Positions 17,024 through 63,372 of a stretch of DNA of 64,000 nt are shown here, one piece after another (position 1 is the stretch's first letter; each line of letters begins with the position of its first letter). The position numbers were made by a program, and so were the translations under genes. Source of the stretch: a candidate division WOR-3 bacterium (GTDB taxonomy: Bacteria > Hydrothermota > Hydrothermia > LBFQ01 > DSFT01); contig CBFGJN010000001.1 of assembly GCA_965649115.1 (NCBI GenBank), positions 568 through 64,567 of the forward strand, written 5' to 3'. Under the pieces are notes generated by a model that saw only the letters and a list, made by a program, of their open reading frames with translations, made no database searches and was not told the DNA's origin.

Positions 17024-18469
17024 TTAAGAGCTTTTTACTTGTACATTTAAAAATACATCGTTGTAATTTTTTGAAATAATTTCAAATCCAAATTTTTTAT
17101 TTAAATAGTTTATAATTCGCTTGACTTCTTTTTTTCTAAAATAATAGTAGCTATTTAGGTTAATGTGGCATTGCGATTTTATTAAACTTAATAAAAATTT
17201 ACAAGCTTTGCTATTCTTTCTCAATTTTATTAATTTATTATCAATTTTGAAGTTGATGAATGTTTTTTCTTCAATTAAACTTAAACTTTTTGGAAGTTTC
17301 AAGTATCTTGAAATAATTTTTAAGAATTTTAAATTTTTCTGTGCTTTTGGAATTTTTCTAAATAAAATCATATTTAAATATAAATGAGTTAAAACTTTAT
17401 GCTTCTTCGCCAACTGAAATGCATTATTGAACCTACCTTTCAAAAAATAATAAGTAATTTTATCCTTAATTCTTAAAGAATTTTTAAAAGAATTTAAGTC
17501 AATTTTAGGTTTTAAGTTATCGTATATTGCTTTTTTTAGGTTTATAAGCATTTCGTAATTACTATAAGCAATTTTGTATTTATGACATAAAAATGAGATT
17601 TTTCTTAAATTAATCTCAAATAAAACTTGCTGATCTGTCATTAAGTAGGCAATAGCTTTTTTTACTAAATATGCTATTTGTTCTCCATCATATTTACTTT
17701 TAAAGCCAAAAGTCAAGAATTTTCTGAAATTTCCTTCATAAAAGTAAATATCAGGGTCTTGTGGATTAATTTTTTCAAGCTTGTCAATAGTTCCAATTGA
17801 AACATAAATGCTTTTTAATAAATTATATATCCAGTTTTCTTGTTGTTTTCTATAAAGTTTTTCAAATAATTTCAAGAGTTTATTTAAAACTTCTTTTCTA
17901 TCCCACAAGGAATTTAGAATCATACCGAAAATTCTATATTTCAGCCAATTAGGCAGTTTTATGATATTACCTTTTTCGTTATTGTAAATTTCAAAAATTT
18001 CATCTTTTTTCCCTAAGTTTCTCAAAATCTCAAGTTTTACAAGTAAAAATTTATAGTAGGAAAATTTATAACTTGATTTTATACATATCTCCATATATTC
18101 TTCAACTTTTTTTAAGGCTAAGTGAAAGTCAATTTTTCCAAATGATATTAAATGATTATATTTATGTGGTAGATGAAATAGTGGAAGATACTTATCATCA
18201 ATGCTTTCATAAAGATATGTCCATTCTTGTTTTAATAAATTATATTTCAAAATTTCTTTTATTGATTTAAAGTCCTTTTGCTCTATTAATTTTGTTATAA
18301 TTTTTAAAAACTCATTGCTTGGATATTCAAATGAATAAACACCGTATCTTGATAGTTTTTCATTTATTGTTGAGATTGGTAATTTGAAATGTTTTGAGAT
18401 TTTTTTATGATGAAAAATTAAATTTTTTTCCACATACAAGTAAATTTTATAAGCAATTTCATCTATCAT
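17024..18469 (-). CDS. Hypothetical lysine-rich helical protein
   Basis: Long ORF with a promoter palindrome directly at its start. No recognisable motif. Confidence 0.4.
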   Translation of the reverse strand: MIDEIAYKIYLYVEKNLIFHHKKISKHFKLPISTINEKLSRYGVYSFEYPSNEFLKIITKLIEQKDFKSIKEILKYNLLKQEWTYLYESIDDKYLPLFHLPHKYNHLISFGKIDFHLALKKVEEYMEICIKSSYKFSYYKFLLVKLEILRNLGKKDEIFEIYNNEKGNIIKLPNWLKYRIFGMILNSLWDRKEVLNKLLKLFEKLYRKQQENWIYNLLKSIYVSIGTIDKLEKINPQDPDIYFYEGNFRKFLTFGFKSKYDGEQIAYLVKKAIAYLMTDQQVLFEINLRKISFLCHKYKIAYSNYEMLINLKKAIYDNLKPKIDLNSFKNSLRIKDKITYYFLKGRFNNAFQLAKKHKVLTHLYLNMILFRKIPKAQKNLKFLKIISRYLKLPKSLSLIEEKTFINFKIDNKLIKLRKNSKACKFLLSLIKSQCHINLNSYYYFRKKEVKRIINYLNKKFGFEIISKNYNDVFLNVQVKSS

Positions 18470-18483
18470 AGTAAAATTTTAAA

Positions 18484-18737
18484 GCTGTGTCTAATAATTC
18501 TGGAATTATTTATTTTCCTCCTAAAACAAGGATTTCTAATAAATTTTCATAAGTTAAAGCATAATTCTAAAAATATAATCATTCCTATTTAAGGCTTCAC
18601 AATTCATCAACCCTCCATTGTCTTGAAATGCTTGAAGTAATAGGGAATTAAAAAGGCTTAGAACCGAAGGCTCAATTCGTAGGGTGAGTGGTAAAAGTAT
18701 AGAAATAATTATACTCTCAGAATTTTTGGACACAGCA
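18484..18737. repeat. Repeat element with perfect inverted ends (head-to-head arrangement of family termini)
   Basis: Starts GCTGTGTCTAATAATTCTGG and ends CAGAATTTTTGGACACAGCA. The interior has AACCGAAGGCTC and AGGGTGAGTGG boxes in reverse orientation. Confidence 0.7.
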
Positions 18738-18757
18738 AAAACCATTTATTTTTTAGC

Positions 18758-18774
18758 TTTAAAATTTTCAAAGT
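18758..18774 (+). promoter_or_regulatory. Promoter-like palindrome CTTTAAAATTTTCAAAG upstream of serS
   Basis: Ends 4 nt before the serS ATG. No Shine-Dalgarno sequence. Confidence 0.5.
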
Positions 18775-18778
18775 TTTT

Positions 18779-20047
18779 ATGCTTGATTTAAGTTATCTAA
18801 AGGGAGAAAAACTTGAAAAATTAAAAAGTAGTTTAATAAATAGAGGATATAGCTTAGATATTCTTGAAAAGATTTTGGATATTGATGGAAAAAGAAGGAA
18901 ATTAATTAAGGAAGTGGATGATTTAAGAGCAAAGAAAAATGAGAAATCAAAAATTATTTCTCAAATGATATCAAAAGGAGAAAATGTAGATGATTTATTA
19001 AAGGAGGCAAGGGAAATTGATAATATGCTTGAACATTTGGAAGAAGAAAGAAGAAAAATTGAAAATGAATTTAATTATTATTGGAGTTTAATTCCAAACA
19101 TTCCCCATCAAAGTGTTCCTATTGGTAAAGATAGTTCTGATAATGTAGTAGTTAGAGAATGGGGTAGAATTCCAGAATTTGAATTTGAACCCAAACCACA
19201 CTGGGAAATATGCGAAAAACTTGATATTATAGATTTTAATATGGGAGGGGAATTAGCAGGTTCAAGATTTGTTGTTTATAAAGGAATTGGAGCAGAGCTT
19301 GAATGGGCTTTGATAAACTATTTTAGAGAATTTGCTAAAAAGCATGGATATAAAGAAATTATTCCACCATTTTTGGTAAATGAAAGAGTTATGTTCAATA
19401 GTGGCCAATTACCAAAATTTAAGGATGAAATGTACTATATTGAAAAAGATGAGTTATATCTCGTTCCTACAGCAGAAGTTCCACTAACAAGTTTATTTAT
19501 GAATAAAACATTAGATGAAGAAGAATTACCTATATATTACTTTGCCTATACACCTTGTTTTAGGAGAGAAGCTGGCGCTTATGGTAAAGATGTTAGAGGA
19601 ATTAAAAGAATGCATCAATTTAATAAAGTTGAATTATATAAATTTACACTTCCTGAAAATTCATATGAGGAACATGAAAAAATGGTAAGAGATGTTGAGG
19701 AAATTTTACAAAGTTTGAATATTCCTTATAGAGTTGTTTTGCTATGTACTGGTGATATGGGCTTTGCATCAGCTAAAACTTATGATATTGAGGTTTATTG
19801 TGCAGGGCAAGGTGGTTATTTGGAAGCAAGTTCAATTAGTAATGTAGAAGATTTTCAAAGTAGAAGAGCTAATATAAAAGTTAAAAGAAAAAGTGGAAAG
19901 AAGGATTTTGTTCATACACTTAATGGTTCAGGTCTTGCAACACCAAGAGTCCTAATAAGTATTATTGAAAATAATCAAACAAAGGAAGGTTATGTTGTTA
20001 TTCCTGAACCTTTAAGAAAATATATTGGAGTTGATATTATTAAATGA
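18779..20047 (+). CDS. serS: Seryl-tRNA synthetase
   Basis: N-terminal coiled-coil arm and class II aaRS motifs (…FRREAG…, GSGLATPR). Confidence 0.95.
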   Translation: MLDLSYLKGEKLEKLKSSLINRGYSLDILEKILDIDGKRRKLIKEVDDLRAKKNEKSKIISQMISKGENVDDLLKEAREIDNMLEHLEEERRKIENEFNYYWSLIPNIPHQSVPIGKDSSDNVVVREWGRIPEFEFEPKPHWEICEKLDIIDFNMGGELAGSRFVVYKGIGAELEWALINYFREFAKKHGYKEIIPPFLVNERVMFNSGQLPKFKDEMYYIEKDELYLVPTAEVPLTSLFMNKTLDEEELPIYYFAYTPCFRREAGAYGKDVRGIKRMHQFNKVELYKFTLPENSYEEHEKMVRDVEEILQSLNIPYRVVLLCTGDMGFASAKTYDIEVYCAGQGGYLEASSISNVEDFQSRRANIKVKRKSGKKDFVHTLNGSGLATPRVLISIIENNQTKEGYVVIPEPLRKYIGVDIIK

Positions 20048-20897
20048 AATTTTTAAGAAGTTTTCTTTCAATTTTTTCAATTATCCTATTTTTTTTGATG
20101 GTTTATTTTGCATTTAAAGATATTGATAAAATCAAGGAGATTTTAAAATTCTCAAATAAATTCTATCTTCTTTTATCAGGGATTTTTTTTTAGCGTTTAA
20201 TTTATTTTCAATTTATATTGTTAAGTTTATCTATCATTTTTTTTCACTTGAATTATCATTTAAGAGAGCTTTTTATATTTCATTTATTTCAATTCTTGGA
20301 AGATACCTACCTGGAAGGTTTTGGACATTTACATTACTTTTAGCATTCTCAAAAGCTTTAAATTTAGATTTGAAAGCAATTACAAAAGGTGCAATTTTAA
20401 ATCAATTTTTCTTAATTTTTTCAGCAATTCCTGCGTTGTGTTTTTATTTTTTGGAAATAAAAAATTACTTACTATTTTTTATTTTTTTAATTTTTTTCCT
20501 TATCTTTCCATTAACATTACATTTTTTGTCTTTAAAGTACGAAATAAAATTAAATGTCTTTGTGTTTTTAAAAATTTTTTTAATGTTTTTAGTTCTTTGG
20601 TTTCTTGTGGGTTTTTCTTTATTTTTCTTTATTTTATCATTTTCAAAATCAATAAATTTATTTTATACAATTTTAATTTTTCCGATAGCTTATAACATTG
20701 GGATATTGTCTTTAATATCACCTGCGGGAATTGGTATAAGAGAGGGAGTTATGACATTTATGTTATTAAAGTTTTTTGATTTGGAATTTTCAAATAAAAT
20801 TAGTGTTCTTTTTAGAATTTTTAATTTGATTATTGAATTGTTTCTTTCACTAATAGCTTATATTTTGTATAAATTAGATAAACTAAGTAGAATTTAA
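20044..20897 (+). pseudogene. Flippase-like / UPF0104 (LPG-synthase TM-type) membrane protein gene interrupted by a frameshift at a T9 homopolymer
   Basis: ATG at 20044 overlaps the serS stop. The frame breaks at TTTTTTTTT (20173-20181). Inserting one T joins it to the 20370-20897 frame (…ILGRYLPGRFW…SPAGIGIREGV…), giving an approximately 284-aa protein. Confidence 0.55.
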
Positions 20898-21449
20898 CAG
20901 ATTTACTAAATTTTCCTTGCTTAATGTATTCAGCTCAAAATTACCAAAATTTACTATAATTGCCCTATTTTTAATTTTAATAATCATAGGAAGAGCATAA
21001 TAAGGCTCAATTCTTTTTAAAAAACTATAAATTTTTTCATTAAAGTCAAGAATCCCATCGTTTTCATCGTGAAGTTTTCCCTCGGGAAAAATAAAGAAGT
21101 AAAATTTATTTGGAAATTCGTTAAGAAGTCTAATTGTTTTAATAATTGAAGCAGTTCTAATATGTTTTTCTTTAAATGGTAAAGTTAATGCAAATTTTGA
21201 AAAAAATGGATATTTTTCATATTCTTCCATCCAAATAATTATTTTTCTATCTTTAAGGATTGTTTTTCTTAACCTATTTAAAATATGAACATCATAAATA
21301 TAAAAGTGATTGGAATAAATAATAATTTTTTTATCTTTGTATTCACTAAAATTTGGAATGTTCAATAAAATTAACTTTCCAATCATTTTTAATTGAATTT
21401 CAAGAACAAGATCAACAAGAAACTTAGGATAATAACTTTTAATACTCAT
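20883..21449 (-). CDS. Lysophospholipid (1-acylglycerol-3-phosphate) acyltransferase family protein
   Basis: HxxxxD block (NHFYIYD) and FPEG block of PlsC-type acyltransferases. Confidence 0.6.
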   Translation of the reverse strand: MSIKSYYPKFLVDLVLEIQLKMIGKLILLNIPNFSEYKDKKIIIYSNHFYIYDVHILNRLRKTILKDRKIIIWMEEYEKYPFFSKFALTLPFKEKHIRTASIIKTIRLLNEFPNKFYFFIFPEGKLHDENDGILDFNEKIYSFLKRIEPYYALPMIIKIKNRAIIVNFGNFELNTLSKENLVNLLNST

Positions 21450-21540
21450 ATCAATAGAAAATGTTAAAGATTAGGTAAAAATAGACTTTATTTATTAAGC
21501 AAAACACAAATTTTTCATTTACTTTAAAATTTCAAACTTT

Positions 21541-22485
21541 ATGAAAACAATTGATTATCTTTTGAAATTTGACGGTAAAATTGTTTTAATTGTTCATAAA
21601 AATCCTGACCCTGATTGTATTGGTAGTGCATTAGCACTTTACAAATTTTTAAAAAATTTTAAAAGTGATGTTAAAATTGTTTCAAAAGATGAACCACCTC
21701 AAAACTTGGATTATTTGAAAGGATTTAATGAGATTATTGTTAATAATTTTCAGGATGCTAATTTATATGTCTTAATTGATACACCTAATATAAAAAGAAC
21801 AGGTTTTGATAATTTTAATTTTAATAATAAAAATATAATAAAAATTGACCATCATATTTCTGATGATAAATATAGTGAATTTGATTATGTTAAGATTGAG
21901 GCTCCTTCAACAACATATCTGATTTTAGAACTTATAAGAAATTATAATGAAAATTATTTAGATGAAGATATGGCTGAGTGTATTTTTATAGGACTTGTAG
22001 GTGATACGGGTAGCTTTTCATATTCAAACTTGAAGTTAGCATTTGAAGCAGCTTTGTATTTAGCAAATAAAGGTTATGATTTATCTAAATTTTCAGAGAG
22101 ATATTCAAGAAATAATTCAATAAGTAGATTTTGTTTAATTAGGAAGGCTCTTGAAACATTAAAGCAAGATGGTGAGATTGCTTATATTGTAATAAGAAAG
22201 CATTTTTATGATGATTGTAGTGCTAAAAAATATGAAAATTTTGGAATTGTTGATTATCCACTTTCAATAAAAGGTGTAAAGGTTGCTTTGAAATTTGAAG
22301 AAATAGAAAATAATAAATGGAAAATAAATTTAAGAAGTAAAAAGGAAATAGATGTTCAAAAATTTGCTTCGCTTCATGGTGGTGGAGGACATAAGAATGC
22401 TTCTGCATTTGAAAAGTTAGGAACAGAAGAAGAGGTTATAAATGAGGTTATTTCTGATTTGAAGGAATATCTAAAAAGCTTTTGA
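21541..22485 (+). CDS. DHH-family phosphoesterase (NrnA-like oligoribonuclease/pAp phosphatase)
   Basis: DPDCIGSALAL, KIDHHISDD (DHH) and GGGH motifs. Confidence 0.8.
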   Translation: MKTIDYLLKFDGKIVLIVHKNPDPDCIGSALALYKFLKNFKSDVKIVSKDEPPQNLDYLKGFNEIIVNNFQDANLYVLIDTPNIKRTGFDNFNFNNKNIIKIDHHISDDKYSEFDYVKIEAPSTTYLILELIRNYNENYLDEDMAECIFIGLVGDTGSFSYSNLKLAFEAALYLANKGYDLSKFSERYSRNNSISRFCLIRKALETLKQDGEIAYIVIRKHFYDDCSAKKYENFGIVDYPLSIKGVKVALKFEEIENNKWKINLRSKKEIDVQKFASLHGGGGHKNASAFEKLGTEEEVINEVISDLKEYLKSF

Positions 22486-23590
22486 TTTCATCAATTTCAG
22501 ATTTTTTGTTTACTTTTAAAATTTCTAAAAGTTGATTAAAATCTTTATTGGTTAATTCATATAAGAATTGGATAATAGAAGCAAATCCACTTCCAATTAA
22601 AAATTTTAATTGCTCGTAATCTATATTTTTAAAATTGAGAACCATAAGTTTCAAGTAATAGTCAGCAATTTTCAAATTATAATTCTCATCAAATTGTTCA
22701 GTTATATGTTTTGGTAAATTTTCAAATTTTAGAACTTTATTATCTAAGGATAATGCATATTTTATAGCATTTTCAATTTCGCTAAAATTTCCAAACCAAG
22801 GATAAGTTAAGAATGCTTTATAAAAGTTATCTTCAATCTCAATAAAATCATTTGAAATTTTCCTTAAAAAGTGTTCTAAAATTAGTAATTTTTCTTTATT
22901 GTTTCTTTCACTTATTGAGGGAATATAAATTGAAGGGATTGTCAATAAATTTTGTGGAGGAGATATTTTATCAGTAATAAAAATAATTCTCTGACCACGT
23001 TTATAAATTTCATTTATAGCAAAATTCAAATCATATTCGTTTTCAAATAAATCTATATTTAGTATAATGATTGATTTTTCAGTTTTTTTATTATCAGTTT
23101 TGAATCCAGCATGTTTTTCCTCAATCTCAAAATAATCAATAGCATTTTCAAGAATTGATCTAATAATTGTTAATTTGCCAACACCTCTTTGACCATATAT
23201 TAATATCCAAGGATTATAAGGACTTTTTAGTAATGTTTCAAGTTTTTCGTAAGTCTCCATTGTTTGACCATAATAGCAAACAAATTTAACATTTGCAGGT
23301 TTTAGGCTGTCTAAGTTGTAAAATTTATTATAAAAATCAGAAATTCTTTGTCTTATTGTCTTCTTTGAATAATCATTTAAGAAATTTTTAATTTCATCTT
23401 TATTTTCAAATGACCAATCTACTGATTTAAAATTCGTTTTACCAATTGTAATAGTTAGATAATTTAAGGATAATTCATATAATTTTTTATGGTTGTTAGG
23501 AATTATTACAATATCGGGAATATCAGTTATAGATTTTGCTAATTCGTATTGTTCAATTTTTAGATCCTTTACTAAATTAAGAATTTTCAA
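22448..23590 (-). CDS. AAA+ ATPase resembling the sigma-54 interaction domain but lacking a canonical GAFTGA
   Basis: Walker A GQRGVGKLT. A FGNFSEIENAIKYAL block matches the GNVRELEN sensor-II region of enhancer-binding proteins. The GAFTGA position reads HAGFKTD. Confidence 0.5.
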   Translation of the reverse strand: MKILNLVKDLKIEQYELAKSITDIPDIVIIPNNHKKLYELSLNYLTITIGKTNFKSVDWSFENKDEIKNFLNDYSKKTIRQRISDFYNKFYNLDSLKPANVKFVCYYGQTMETYEKLETLLKSPYNPWILIYGQRGVGKLTIIRSILENAIDYFEIEEKHAGFKTDNKKTEKSIIILNIDLFENEYDLNFAINEIYKRGQRIIFITDKISPPQNLLTIPSIYIPSISERNNKEKLLILEHFLRKISNDFIEIEDNFYKAFLTYPWFGNFSEIENAIKYALSLDNKVLKFENLPKHITEQFDENYNLKIADYYLKLMVLNFKNIDYEQLKFLIGSGFASIIQFLYELTNKDFNQLLEILKVNKKSEIDEIKSFLDIPSNQK

Positions 23591-23597
23591 TAATAAG

Positions 23598-23670
23598 AGC
23601 GAGCGACGGGACTCGAACCCGCAACCCCCAGCTTGGAAGGCTGGCGCTCTACCAATTGAGCTACGCTCGC
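23598..23670 (-). tRNA. tRNA-Gly (anticodon UCC)
   Basis: Reverse complement GCGAGCGTAGCTCAATTGGTAGAGCGCCAGCCTTCCAAGCTGGGGGTTGCGGGTTCGAGTCCCGTCGCTCGCT folds as a cloverleaf. The anticodon loop is CTTCCAA and the discriminator is U. CCA is not encoded. Confidence 0.85.
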
Positions 23671-23674
23671 AAGG

Positions 23675-23689
23675 TTTAAAATTTTAAAG
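23675..23689. promoter_or_regulatory. Perfect palindrome TTTAAAATTTTAAAG shared by divergent tRNA-Gly and truB
   Basis: Lies 5 nt upstream of the tRNA 5' end on the minus strand and 9 nt upstream of the truB ATG on the plus strand. Confidence 0.55.
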
Positions 23690-23698
23690 CATAAGTTT

Positions 23699-24535
23699 AT
23701 GGATGGTTTTATCCTCATAAACAAACCAAAGGGTTGGACATCTTACGATGTTATTAGGGTTTTAAAGAAGTTATTTAATGTTAAAAAAATAGGACACTCT
23801 GGGACATTAGACCCTTTTGCAGAAGGACTTTTAATTATTGGGATAAATAAAGCTACAAAATTTATTGAATTCTTGATGAATTTACCAAAGGAGTACATTG
23901 CTAAAATTAAACTTGGTGCTGAAACGGATACACTTGATATAGATGGTGAAATTGTAAATTACGATAATAACTTTAAATTAAATAGAGAAATTCTTGAAAT
24001 GGTTATTAATGATTTTCCAAGAGATTATGAGCAAATTCCACCAAAATTCTCTGCTAAGAAAATTGATGGAAAAAGGGCTTATGAATTAGCAAGGGAAGGT
24101 AAGGAATTTGAATTAAAACCAAAACTTGTAAGTATATATGATTTGAAAATTGAAGATATTGATGAGGTTAATAATGAAGCTATTTTTTATCTTAAAGTTA
24201 GTTCTGGGTTTTATGTTAGAAGTTTTGCAAGAGATTTAGCCAATAAAATGGGAACATTTGGATATTTATTAGAATTAAAAAGGATAGCAATTGGTAATTT
24301 TAAAATAGAAAAAGCACATAGTATAAATGATAAAGAATTTAAACTTATTCAAATTGATACTGCTCTTGATTTTATAGAAAAAATTGAAATTCTTGATTGT
24401 AGAAAATTCAAAAATGGCCAGATTACAACTTATAAATACAAAGATGGAATTTATAGAGTTTACTGTGATAGTAATTTTTTAGGAATAGGAAAAATTGAAA
24501 ATAATTTATTAAAACCATTAAAAGTTTTGACTTAA
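23699..24535 (+). CDS. truB: tRNA pseudouridine(55) synthase
   Basis: GHSGTLDPFAEGLL catalytic Asp motif and TruB length. Confidence 0.9.
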   Translation: MDGFILINKPKGWTSYDVIRVLKKLFNVKKIGHSGTLDPFAEGLLIIGINKATKFIEFLMNLPKEYIAKIKLGAETDTLDIDGEIVNYDNNFKLNREILEMVINDFPRDYEQIPPKFSAKKIDGKRAYELAREGKEFELKPKLVSIYDLKIEDIDEVNNEAIFYLKVSSGFYVRSFARDLANKMGTFGYLLELKRIAIGNFKIEKAHSINDKEFKLIQIDTALDFIEKIEILDCRKFKNGQITTYKYKDGIYRVYCDSNFLGIGKIENNLLKPLKVLT

Positions 24536-47984: not shown

Positions 47985-48527
47985 AATAAGTTATTTTCGA
48001 GTGGGTGGGGAAAATAAAGTTGCTTTGTTCAATAAAAATTTTAAGAAAACTATTGATTTTAGCGGGTTTTTAAGGGGGGCAAAGCCCCCCATAACCGAAA
48101 TAGACACAGCAAATATATTTTGCTTTGTCCAGTAATTATTGTCAATCACTTGATAATCAATAACTTATAAAATTTTTAGGGAAATTATAGATTTCATTAG
48201 GGGGATTTTAGGGGGGCGAAGTCCCCCACAGCCTAAAAATGGGCATTTTAAAGCCGAAAGCTTTTATTTAGGGTGAGCGAGGAAAAATAGTAAAATAAAT
48301 AATTTTAGAATTATTAGACACAGCAAATATATTTAACTTTGTCTAGTAATTGGTGTTAAGTTATTGATAATCAATAATTTGTGAAAACTTAATAAAATTA
48401 TTGTCTTTATGGGGGTTTTAAGGGGGGCGAAGCCCCCCATAGCCGAAATATGGGTATTTTAAAGCCGAAGGCTTAATTTTAGGGTGGGTGGGAAAAATAA
48501 ATGGTTTTAGAATTACTAGACACAGCA
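47985..48527 (-). repeat. Array of three reverse-orientation repeat units plus a leading fragment, separated by a constant AATATATTT(T/A) spacer
   Basis: Units approximately 48011-48111, 48122-48325 and 48336-48527. Each starts (T)GCTTTGTYYARTAA and ends AGACACAGCA. The GGGGGGC(A/G)AAG(C/T)CCCCC hairpin is present in all. Confidence 0.8.
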
Positions 48528-48561: not shown

Positions 48562-48747
48562 ATGAAAAAAATTTTAATAATTATAATTTTTTTACTTTCT
48601 TGTGAGAAAGAAGCTGATATTATAATAGAAAAAAATGGCTCTGTAATTATAAAAAGTAAAAGAATTAAATGCGAAAAAGAAAAATTCCTTTTTTGGGAAA
48701 CAGGTAGATTGAAATGTTATATTGTAGAGGAAAAAGGGAGAAAATAA
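48562..48747 (+). CDS. Small hypothetical lipoprotein
   Basis: Lipobox FLLSCEK. The promoter palindrome CTTTAAAATTTCATT abuts the ATG. Confidence 0.4.
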   Translation: MKKILIIIIFLLSCEKEADIIIEKNGSVIIKSKRIKCEKEKFLFWETGRLKCYIVEEKGRK

Positions 48748-48749
48748 AA

Positions 48750-50207
48750 ATGTTGCTTTTATTTCTTTTTGGAAGTTTTTCATTAATTTTAACTCAATAT
48801 CCATTTTATTTTTTTCCAGCAAGCTTATTTGCTTTTGTTCCACTGCTTATTATAACGAAAAATTTTGATAATAAAAGGACATTTTTTATAAGTTTTCTTT
48901 ATACCTTTCCATTTTTTTTTATTCATTTAAATTGGTTGTACAATTTAGATGTAGGTAAAAGTCTTGGGGTTTTATTAGTGATTGGTGTTAGTTTTATGAT
49001 AATTTTAAGAACAATTTTATTTTGTATTTGGTTTTTATTATTTAGAAAATCAAAAAGTCCTATTATTTTTGGACTTTCATTTACAGTCTATGAATGGATT
49101 ATTTCATATTGGTTATTTGATTTATCACTTCCTTGGGCAAATTATTATTATTCATCACTTGGTTTTTTAATATATGCTCAAATTAGTTCAGTTTTTGGTC
49201 CTCATTTCATAACATTTTCTCTTATTACATTCAATTATGCACTTTATCTCTCAATTGAAAGAAGGATTAATATATTGCCATATTCATTTTTTATACTAAT
49301 TATAGTAATTTTTGGTATCTTTTGGAAGAATTTTAAAATTAAAGAAAATGATTATTTAAGAGTTGCTATTATTCAACCAAATGTCCTTCCAAGATATGCT
49401 TATGACCCGATGGAATGGAAAGAGACAAGAGAAGCATTTTCAATTCTATTAGATTCCATAAAAAATAAAAATTATGATATTTTAGTTTTGTCTGAATCAG
49501 CAATACCTGGAATTTATCCTCAAAATTATTGGAATTTTGAACTTGTTAATAAAATTTTAAAAGAAACAAAAAGGCCAATTCTAATGGGAAGTGCTCGTGA
49601 GGAAGATGGTAATTATTATAATACAGCTCTTTTAATTGATACAACTGGAAAAATTGTTGATTTTTATGATAAAGTTCATATTGTTCCTTTTGGTGAAAAT
49701 CTACCATTTTATGAATATCTTCCAAATTTTATTAAAAATTTAGATTTAGGTCAAGGCAATTACAAGAAGGGAAAATTTTTCAAACCTATTAATTTTAATG
49801 AACAAAAAATTGGTGTTATGATATGTTATGAAAGTATATTTCCTGAAATTTCAAGAAGCTTAGTTAGGAATGGTTCAAATGTTCTTTTTGTTATAACGAA
49901 TGACGGATGGTTTGGTCCTTCAACAGGACCAAGAGAACATTATTTATTTTCAAAATTGAGAGCTATTGAAACAGGAAAATTCATTGTTAGGAGTGCAAAG
50001 ACTGGTATTTCTGCTATTATAAATGATAAGGGAGAGACAATTAAGGAGATAGATTTATTTAAAAGAGGATATTTAATTGAAAATGTTCCAACTAATGACT
50101 ATAAAACATTATATTCTTATATTGGAGAATCTTGGATTTTCGTTATTTTCTTGCTTTTAGTGATTTTAAAATTTCTTCAAATTTTCCATAAAAATTCTCA
50201 TAACTAA
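48750..50207 (+). CDS. lnt: Apolipoprotein N-acyltransferase
   Basis: N-terminal TM domain plus a C-N hydrolase domain (ICYESIFPE with catalytic Cys; E…K…C triad). The likely start is at 48750 after an AAGGGAG RBS rather than at 48714. Confidence 0.85.
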   Translation: MLLLFLFGSFSLILTQYPFYFFPASLFAFVPLLIITKNFDNKRTFFISFLYTFPFFFIHLNWLYNLDVGKSLGVLLVIGVSFMIILRTILFCIWFLLFRKSKSPIIFGLSFTVYEWIISYWLFDLSLPWANYYYSSLGFLIYAQISSVFGPHFITFSLITFNYALYLSIERRINILPYSFFILIIVIFGIFWKNFKIKENDYLRVAIIQPNVLPRYAYDPMEWKETREAFSILLDSIKNKNYDILVLSESAIPGIYPQNYWNFELVNKILKETKRPILMGSAREEDGNYYNTALLIDTTGKIVDFYDKVHIVPFGENLPFYEYLPNFIKNLDLGQGNYKKGKFFKPINFNEQKIGVMICYESIFPEISRSLVRNGSNVLFVITNDGWFGPSTGPREHYLFSKLRAIETGKFIVRSAKTGISAIINDKGETIKEIDLFKRGYLIENVPTNDYKTLYSYIGESWIFVIFLLLVILKFLQIFHKNSHN

Positions 50208-52054: not shown

Positions 52055-52180
52055 GGGGGGATTGAAGGGGGTGGTAGCCCCCTACTGCTGAAAAATGTGT
52101 ATTTTAAAGGTTCCACCTTGGTGGATGGGTAAAATAAAGAAATAATCTATATTTTAGAATTACTAGACAAAGAAAATAAT
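52055..52180 (-). repeat. Degenerate repeat copy in reverse orientation
   Basis: GGGGGGATTGAAGGGGGTGGTAGCCCCC … GGTGGATGGG … TTTAGAATTACTAGACAAAG. Confidence 0.55.
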
Positions 52181-58699: not shown

Positions 58700-58903
58700 G
58701 CCTTGTCCAATAATTCTGGAAATATAATTATTTCTATATTTTCCCACCCGCCCTAAAAATAAGCCTTCGGCTTTAAAAAACCCCATCTTTTGCTATGGGG
58801 GGCTCTGCCCCCCATAAAGTGCCCCCATTATTTCAAGTATTTCAATTAATACTTAATAAGTAGTTGATTATCAATCACTTAGCAATAATTATTGGACAAA
58901 GCA
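58700..58903 (+). repeat. Full-length repeat unit
   Basis: GCCTTGTCCAATAATTCTGG … CCCACCCGCCC … AAGCCTTCGGCTT … GGGGGGCTCTGCCCCCC … TTGATTATCAATCA … AATTATTGGACAAAGCA. Preceded by ATTTTTTTGT. Confidence 0.8.
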
Positions 58904-58913
58904 AGAGTTAGTT

Positions 58914-59116
58914 GCTGTGTCTAAGAATTCTGAAAGTATTTATTTTTCTTATTTTGCCCACCCGCCCTGAAATAAAGGCTACGCCTTTAAAATGCCCATT
59001 TTTCGGCTGTGGGGGGCTCCGCCCCCCATTAGATCCCCCATAAAATCAATAGTTTTATTGAAATTTTCGTAAGTCATTGATAATCAAGGATTTAACAATA
59101 ATTATTGGACAAAGCA
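58914..59116 (+). repeat. Full-length repeat unit (tandem to the previous one)
   Basis: GCTGTGTCTAAGAATTCTGAAA … CCCACCCGCCC … AAAGGCTACGCCTTT (stem-swapped hairpin) … GGGGGGCTCCGCCCCCC … AATTATTGGACAAAGCA. Followed by ATTTTTTTGT. Confidence 0.8.
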
Positions 59117-63089: not shown

Positions 63090-63372
63090 ATTGGGGGTAG
63101 GGTTTTAAGGGAGTCCCCCCATAGCCTAAAAATGGACATTTAAAAGATGGATTTTTTAAAGCTGTGGGCTTAATTTTTAGGATAGGTAGGCAAAATATAG
63201 AAATACAATAACTTATAAATTTTTAAGGAAATTGTTAATTTATTGGGGGAAATTAAGGGGGGCGAAGCCCCCCACTGCCGAAAAATGGGTATTTTTAAGC
63301 CGAAGGCTTAATTATAGGGTGGGTGGGCAAAATATAGAAATGAATATATTTTTAGAATTATTGGACACAGCA
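63090..63372 (-). repeat. Two reverse-orientation repeat units
   Basis: GGGAGTCCCCCCATAGCCTAAAAATGG … and GGGGGGCGAAGCCCCCCACTGCCGAAAAATGGGTATTTTTAAGCCGAAGGCTTAATTATAGGGTGGGTGGGC … TTTTTAGAATTATTGGACACAGCA. Confidence 0.75.

Follow-up and report, generated by a model that had tools for sequence, protein, structure and literature searches.

Organization of the serS locus

The window, i.e. the whole stretch of 64,000 nucleotides from a candidate division WOR-3 bacterium that was analyzed, harbors a seryl-tRNA synthetase gene followed by a flippase-like membrane protein gene whose reading frame is interrupted at a run of nine T residues (T9). The locus comprises the following features:

18779–20047, forward strand: serS, seryl-tRNA synthetase, 422 aa (open reading frame list; Pfam Seryl_tRNA_N and tRNA-synt_2b on the orthologous genes)
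20044–20193, forward strand: ORF1, zero frame, 49 codons plus TAG (open reading frame list, translation)
20183–20191, forward strand: T9 slippery run, putative recoding site (sequence; conserved in nine lineages)
20191–20193, forward strand: zero-frame TAG stop abutting the T9 run (TAG or TAA in eight of nine lineages)
20190–20897, forward strand: -1 frame part, from Leu50 (TTA, 20190–20192) to the TAA at 20895–20897 (PF03706 match, dN/dS, phase switch)
20883–21449, reverse strand: convergent neighbor, 188 aa, context only (translation of the open reading frame; motifs read by eye)

The ATG at 20044 overlaps the TGA of serS as ATGA, and the junction between serS and the flippase-like gene, ATTAAATGAA, is invariant in seven aligned lineages. 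A scan of the interval between both genes revealed no terminator-like site, and promoter-like sites were not above the shuffled expectation. serS is the probable co-transcription partner of the frameshifted gene, and the arrangement suggests translational coupling between both genes in every lineage. The original prediction of an open reading frame that starts at 20044, overlaps the serS stop and ends right after a T run holds, as this frame contains 49 codons and terminates with the TAG at 20191–20193. The T9 run itself had been placed at 20173–20181, which is 10 nt too low; its actual position is 20183–20191.

The zero-frame reading of the run is A_TT.TTT.TTT.T_AG, and a U_UUU_UUU heptamer is contained in it. 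Standard decoding hence yields the 49-aa peptide of ORF1, which covers the flippase-like protein from TM1 via a short amphipathic helix to the middle of TM2; an open reading frame of equal length is called in the orthologous loci. In the -1 frame, no stop occurs between 20160 and the TAA at 20895–20897, and the coding part of this frame supplies the remainder of TM2 and everything up to the C-terminus, with the motifs LGRYLPGRFW and SPAGIGIREG; AFYISFISILGR is an example peptide of the fused protein downstream of residue 50. No ATG, GTG or TTG is present in this frame of the window from 20160 up to 20370, and the 60 start-less codons between these positions are nevertheless conserved. The 20370–20897 frame that had been proposed as the second half of the gene does join in frame, but it is merely the portion after the first TTG of a frame that is open from 20160. 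Addition of one T at the run results in a 284-aa protein and removal of two T residues in one of 283 aa, both of which contain SPAGIGIREGV, so that translation confirms the anticipated fusion product of about 284 aa by one added T. The fused junction reads S-G-I-F-F|L-A-F-N, and a -1 ribosomal slip would give the identical product.

The convergent neighbor on the reverse strand (20883–21449) overlaps the 3′ end of the flippase-like gene by 15 nt. It carries an H-x4-D motif (NHFYIYD) and an FPEG motif, which are typical of PlsC-type acyltransferases, and had no match in Pfam or NCBIfam. This gene was found in the closest lineages only, in which the locus would thereby comprise two genes related to lipids.

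The fused protein resembles the flippase domain of MprF

The fused protein aligns with the PF03706 profile (LPG_synthase_TM) across the junction, with residues 11–264 of 284 covering positions 3–297 of the 302 profile positions. The score obtained for the fused protein of the window (28 bits, E 1.9e-6) lies below the gathering score of 33.4, and its TIGR00374 score of 26 is below the cut-off of 43.2. PF03706 was matched by all six clade members tested, the best of them with an E value of 2e-10, and orthologs carry precomputed matches to the same family. An exhaustive phmmer search with the fused protein returned 1471 matches at E ≤ 1e-3, and most proteins of about 300 aa among the best 150 of these align to residues ~5–280 in one stretch. 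The alignment with full-length distant homologs (P0011–P0015) is likewise continuous across residues 49|50. The junction is spanned by a hydrophobic segment (residues 39–65) that is predicted to be a transmembrane helix, and the AlphaFold model of the fused protein (pLDDT 86.9, pTM 0.83) displays a single continuous helix at residues 39–66 with a pLDDT of about 96. When this model was compared to the PDB using Foldseek, the top three matches were all MprF transmembrane flippase domains (7duw_A with E 4e-4 and TMq 0.66, 7f47 and 9j8s_A), each with a probability of 1.00, while all others reached at most 0.16.

The family assignment is supported by the modeled fold and by co-linearity, with the sub-threshold HMM score as a caveat. 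The flippase-like (UPF0104) family initially proposed for the gene agrees with the PF03706 match, the co-linearity with intact homologs and the fact that only MprF structures were matched in the PDB. The best explanation would be that the product is one 284-aa MprF-flippase-like membrane protein (PF03706/UPF0104/'PplT') with a predicted lipid-translocase-like role. A function in lipid translocation is only partly established for stand-alone PF03706 members (bioRxiv 10.1101/2022.03.11.483950). The protein probably belongs to the same Pfam family as the MprF flippase domain and stand-alone PF03706 proteins (E. coli YbhN, 'PplT'), with which it has a modeled fold of about eight helices and the PAGIGxREG and GRYxPGK/RxW motifs in common, and it is itself a stand-alone protein of about 290 aa (bioRxiv 10.1101/2022.03.11.483950). 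Unlike MprF, the WOR-3 protein has no aminoacyl-PG synthase domain. A role in aminoacyl-lipid synthesis via the linkage to serS, in analogy to MprF, was considered and rejected because this synthase domain is missing and the outgroup ortholog is not linked to serS.

The frame break is conserved among WOR-3 lineages

A comparison with orthologs had been suggested together with the original prediction, and it reveals T9 and the same frame break in nine distinct lineages, which share 70–90% nucleotide and 60–91% protein identity with the window and could be aligned without gaps. The sample comprised 20 independent WOR-3/Ca. Hydrothermia records, the window included and duplicate contigs removed. 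T9 and the -1 frame break are present in 19 of these, and the remaining record (L009) carries T10. The records stem from different studies, SRA runs, assemblers and years, with coverages near 89x. Every retrievable relative possesses serS, followed by the ATGA overlap, the 49-codon frame, T9 and the -1 frame. The closest database proteins, which originate from MAGs of candidate division WOR-3/Ca. Hydrothermia and from hot-spring metagenomes, have without exception been annotated as truncated fragments of 170–244 aa, and an intact allele of about 284 aa was not found among the matches listed in two protein database searches. The nearest intact outgroup (P0017) shows 33% identity, has 42% GC and is not linked to serS; its equivalent site reads ATT GTA TAT GCA CTC and contains no T run.

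Substitution patterns were analyzed separately on both sides of the run. Upstream of the run, the mean pairwise variability of the three codon positions amounts to.264/.122/.431 in frame 0, and the corresponding values for frame -1 downstream of it are.207/.114/.369, i.e. the variable codon position changes phase within T9. The Nei-Gojobori dN/dS is about 0.07–0.2 on both sides (0.05–0.2 for ORF1 in frame 0 and 0.1–0.2 for the -1 frame part), while dS ranges from about 0.4 to saturation for both segments. The low frame-specific dN/dS on either side together with the phase switch at the run argues that the frameshift is old and that both halves are translated.

The zero frame is closed by TAG or TAA immediately after the run in eight of the nine lineages. 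In the ninth, L004, two substitutions shift the run by 1 nt to the right and remove the immediate stop, which now follows 19 codons later, and nine T residues are retained.

The single T10 allele (L009, JGI 3300003604, run at 1515–1524) shares 99.7% identity with L010 across 5.1 kb, in which 12 mismatches and two indels distinguish both sequences. Both indels are located inside the flippase-like gene, the second being a 2-nt deletion ~570 nt downstream that breaks the frame before PAGIGxREG. We considered whether L009 might be a low-quality contig and rejected this, as the few differences from L010 and the position of both indels in one gene look like a real variant allele. L009 could be a real variant whose 'repaired' gene was inactivated again, and this pattern would fit harmful constitutive expression or local decay, with the reservation that it is a single case.

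Two further observations concern sequence differences among close relatives. The window at 17370–23924 differs from L003 (GCA_039803085.1), a public MAG assembled from the same population, by two mismatches and eight indels totalling 42 nt, among which is a 15-nt in-frame deletion (SLFFF) of L003 inside the flippase-like gene. A 169-aa prediction on a JGI contig of 2860 bp (P0010) combines an unrelated N-terminal membrane segment with the last ~73 residues of the fused protein at 93% identity and probably arose by chimeric assembly or by rearrangement.

The T9 run is an exception to a depletion of long A/T runs

Only two A/T runs of at least nine nucleotides are present in the window as compared to 61 ± 12 in dinucleotide-preserving shuffles, which corresponds to a depletion of ~30-fold. 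In 21 related loci (104 kb), the run of the flippase-like gene is the sole A/T run of at least 9. Since such runs are so rare in the window and the related loci, the T9 run is not a chance feature. A search of the window for other split genes, i.e. pairs of open reading frames that abut at A/T runs of at least 7, retrieved ordinary gene boundaries only.

The second T9 of the window (48912–48920) is located in lnt (apolipoprotein N-acyltransferase, 48708–50204), where it lies in frame and encodes FFF, and it served as a matched control for the T9 at the frameshift site. The FFF motif of lnt is conserved at the protein level in the clade, including the same assemblies, while the T9 is broken by TTC in three orthologs, whose codons are TTC TTT TTT, TTC TTC TTC and TTT TTC TTT, respectively. 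As T9 is lost in lnt while FFF is kept, AT bias does not maintain such a run; the T9 at the frameshift site is kept nonetheless. Part of the latter is forced by its coding for Ile/Val-Phe-Phe-Leu. FF dipeptides in the window are encoded by TTTTTT in only 53% of cases, even though TTT makes up 85% of the Phe codons. The depletion of A/T runs and this codon usage suggest a lineage-wide selection against slippery runs.

The window also contains a dispersed intergenic repeat family, with copies at 2671–2687, 48074–48090, 48211–48227, 48422–48438, 52067–52082, 58797–58813, 59011–59027 and 63257–63273. Its core is a hairpin rich in GC (GGGGGGCGAAGCCCCCC, or a CTCYG loop); the flanks are conserved, and both orientations occur. 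In this genome of 27% GC the family looks REP- or MITE-like.

Transcriptional slippage as a candidate mechanism

We consider it fairly probable that the site is a conserved recoding site that operates mainly by transcriptional slippage at a T9 of fixed length. According to this model, the reading frame would be permanently interrupted in the DNA by T9, so that standard decoding would stop at the TAG abutting the run and the full-length protein would arise only upon a -1 shift of the frame at the run. RNA polymerase would slip on the nine rU:dA pairs, which amount to about one hybrid length, and add one untemplated U in a fraction of the transcripts; ribosomes slipping by -1 on U_UUU_UUU may add to this. 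If the shift is obligatory and of low efficiency, a lipid-translocase-like protein could be produced only as a small and constant share of what the serS transcript yields, and non-productive decoding would terminate at once. We infer all three elements of this proposal, namely the occurrence of slippage, its mainly transcriptional nature and a dosage-limiting purpose relative to serS, and regard the dosage rationale as speculation.

Slippage genes are characterized by runs of 8–9 or more nucleotides (PMC1088944, PMC3711429), and in the flippase-like gene a T9 (20183–20191) lies exactly at the frame transition with the phase switch inside it. The run is conserved in nine distinct lineages and 19 of the 20 records, while the control T9 in lnt is not. 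Slippage efficiencies of about 50% and 25–30% have been described for T. thermophilus dnaX (A9; PMC1088944) and Shigella spa13 (PMC5009743), respectively, and about 30% full-length transcripts rescued by slippage for Blochmannia (PMC3017870).

The proposal of transcriptional slippage has to be weighed first against programmed -1 ribosomal frameshifting, which we regard as rather unlikely to be the main mechanism. Here, the mRNA would contain a faithful U9, and tRNA-Phe on UUU.UUU would slip back by one base on U_UUU_UUU, aided by UAG or UAA in the A site, to produce the same I-F-F-L-A junction. Sequence alone does not separate both mechanisms, as the run is at the same time a perfect -1 frameshifting heptamer with a slow-to-decode stop. 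All nine lineages, L004 among them, possess a perfect X_XXY_YYZ heptamer in the proper phase; in eight of the nine the run is immediately followed by a zero-frame stop, and the third position of the preceding Ile, Val or Ala codon is always T. Elements that commonly stimulate a ribosomal shift are not conserved, however: RNAalifold, applied to the nine lineages from -40 to +110, detected no conserved downstream hairpin or pseudoknot (consensus of -1.58 kcal/mol, with a 6-pair AU hairpin only), and a conserved upstream SD-like element is missing, the bases before the run varying between AGGGA, AGCAA, TGGAA, TATTG and TTCTA. Unstimulated heptamers in E. coli yield well under 1% frameshifting, only 2–10 times the background of 0.055% (PMC4066793). 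Moreover, seven T residues would suffice for the ribosome, yet nine are kept even where the run is shifted by one base in L004, so that its length appears to be conserved, and the depletion of 9-mers suggests a hazard that is independent of the frame.

Phase variation at the DNA level is improbable. In this scenario, slipped-strand mispairing during replication would alter the length of the T tract and thereby turn the gene ON (T10 or T7) or OFF (T9) in subpopulations. Such a switch would agree with the role of homopolymers as classic contingency loci, with a membrane protein as the product, and with L009, which carries T10 while relatives with 99.7% identity carry T9. On the other hand, exactly T9 is found in 19 of 20 independent consensus sequences, with neither T8 nor T11 among them, and the one allele with T10 has an additional lesion in this gene, a deletion of 2 nt; over 5.1 kb there are no further indels. 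Further arguments against phase variation are that no intact allele of about 284 aa is among the matches listed in the two protein database searches and that a permanent OFF state would not sustain a dN/dS of ~0.1 past dS > 1. Hence, of the slippage-prone switch envisaged in the original prediction, the slippage-prone nature of the run is retained, while an on/off switch in the DNA is at odds with a tract length that hardly varies and with the second frameshift of the sole T10 allele.

It is very improbable that the interruption reflects an artefact, with a true T10 being systematically under-called, or a decaying gene. Homopolymers are error-prone in sequencing and most annotations call the flippase-like gene as truncated fragments, but the run has equal length in data from many assemblers and from different years and runs, with coverages near 89x, and a T10 was indeed assembled in L009. 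In addition, the other T9 of the window lies in frame within an intact lnt, and the same MAGs contain lnt and serS at full length. The sequencing error that had been considered for the flippase-like gene is thus very unlikely, as all but one of the 20 independent records, which derive from various studies and runs, show T9. Recent pseudogenization, the other initial suggestion, is effectively excluded, since the break has persisted to dS > 1 under strong, frame-specific purifying selection with low dN/dS in both halves.

Similarly slim is the chance of a genuinely split gene, in which the 49-aa peptide and a separately initiated protein of ~235 aa would assemble non-covalently. While termination-reinitiation is common at overlapping open reading frames and the 49-aa frame is conserved, the -1 frame of the window and its orthologs offers no ATG, GTG or TTG in the overlap of ~10 codons or the next 60 codons, its conservation starts exactly at the run, and the cut would fall into the middle of a transmembrane helix. 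Quadruplet decoding was dismissed, as the required shift is -1 and not +1.

As an extension of the slippage model, the T9 might act as a tunable rheostat, a doubtful idea to which we attach little probability. As slippage depends on the stability of the nine-pair rU:dA hybrid and on the UTP supply, the full-length fraction would rise with temperature or nucleotide status. If true, this would represent a thermosensor based on RNA polymerase that adjusts membrane lipid asymmetry in these thermophiles, and the 49-aa peptide might be functional as a second product.

Comparison with known recoding systems

To our knowledge, only few chromosomal, non-mobile bacterial genes need a conserved homopolymer frameshift (T3SS genes, dnaX, mapW, tssM and genes of endosymbionts). 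The flippase-like gene would add a deeply conserved case from a free-living, uncultured thermophilic phylum and from the PF03706 family, for which no recoding has been reported. A literature search by family names retrieved no paper in which the PF03706 family is connected with a frameshift, and PMC3711429 does not mention 'UPF0104'. Judged by comparative genomics, the gene would extend a mechanism already known in kind to a new gene family and a new phylum. The gene is mis-annotated in every record of the clade that was retrieved, as public annotations list a truncated fragment or a 'hypothetical protein' (170–244 aa). The depletion of 9-mers and the matched, non-conserved control in lnt would make the locus a clean natural system for studying protein dosage set by slippage relative to an upstream housekeeping gene.

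The site shares the zero-frame slippery heptamer and the overlapping -1 frame with the -1 frameshifting sites of IS elements, phages and E. coli dnaX (e.g. A_AAA_AAG). These require stimulation by a structure downstream and/or an SD-like element upstream, neither of which is conserved in the WOR-3 gene. The frameshifts in poly(A) and poly(T) runs of Blochmannia and Buchnera are comparable in that they are retained between species without gene degradation, the genes of these endosymbionts being rescued by transcriptional slippage (PMC3017870). Their genomes contain 114–153 runs of at least 9 each and are under strong drift, and many of the frameshifts are merely tolerated lesions, whereas the free-living WOR-3 lineage is ~30-fold depleted in such runs and the run at the frameshift site is the exception that is kept.

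In Shigella flexneri mxiE and spa13, two overlapping open reading frames are joined by one untemplated nucleotide that RNA polymerase inserts in a homopolymer, which is a U run in mxiE (mxiE, PMC1088944; spa13, PMC5009743). These are plasmid-borne virulence regulators or secretion components of a mesophilic pathogen for which slippage is experimentally proven; the putative WOR-3 case, in contrast, is chromosomal, concerns a lipid-translocase-like protein of uncultured thermophiles and extends over a far deeper divergence. The dnaX gene of Thermus thermophilus (A9) resembles the WOR-3 gene as a chromosomal housekeeping-type gene of a thermophile with a nine-base homopolymer, and its heterogeneous mRNA gives rise to two products (PMC1088944). 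The assignment of these products differs, as the templated length of the dnaX run encodes the long product and slippage leads to the short one, whereas in the WOR-3 gene slippage would be required for the long product.
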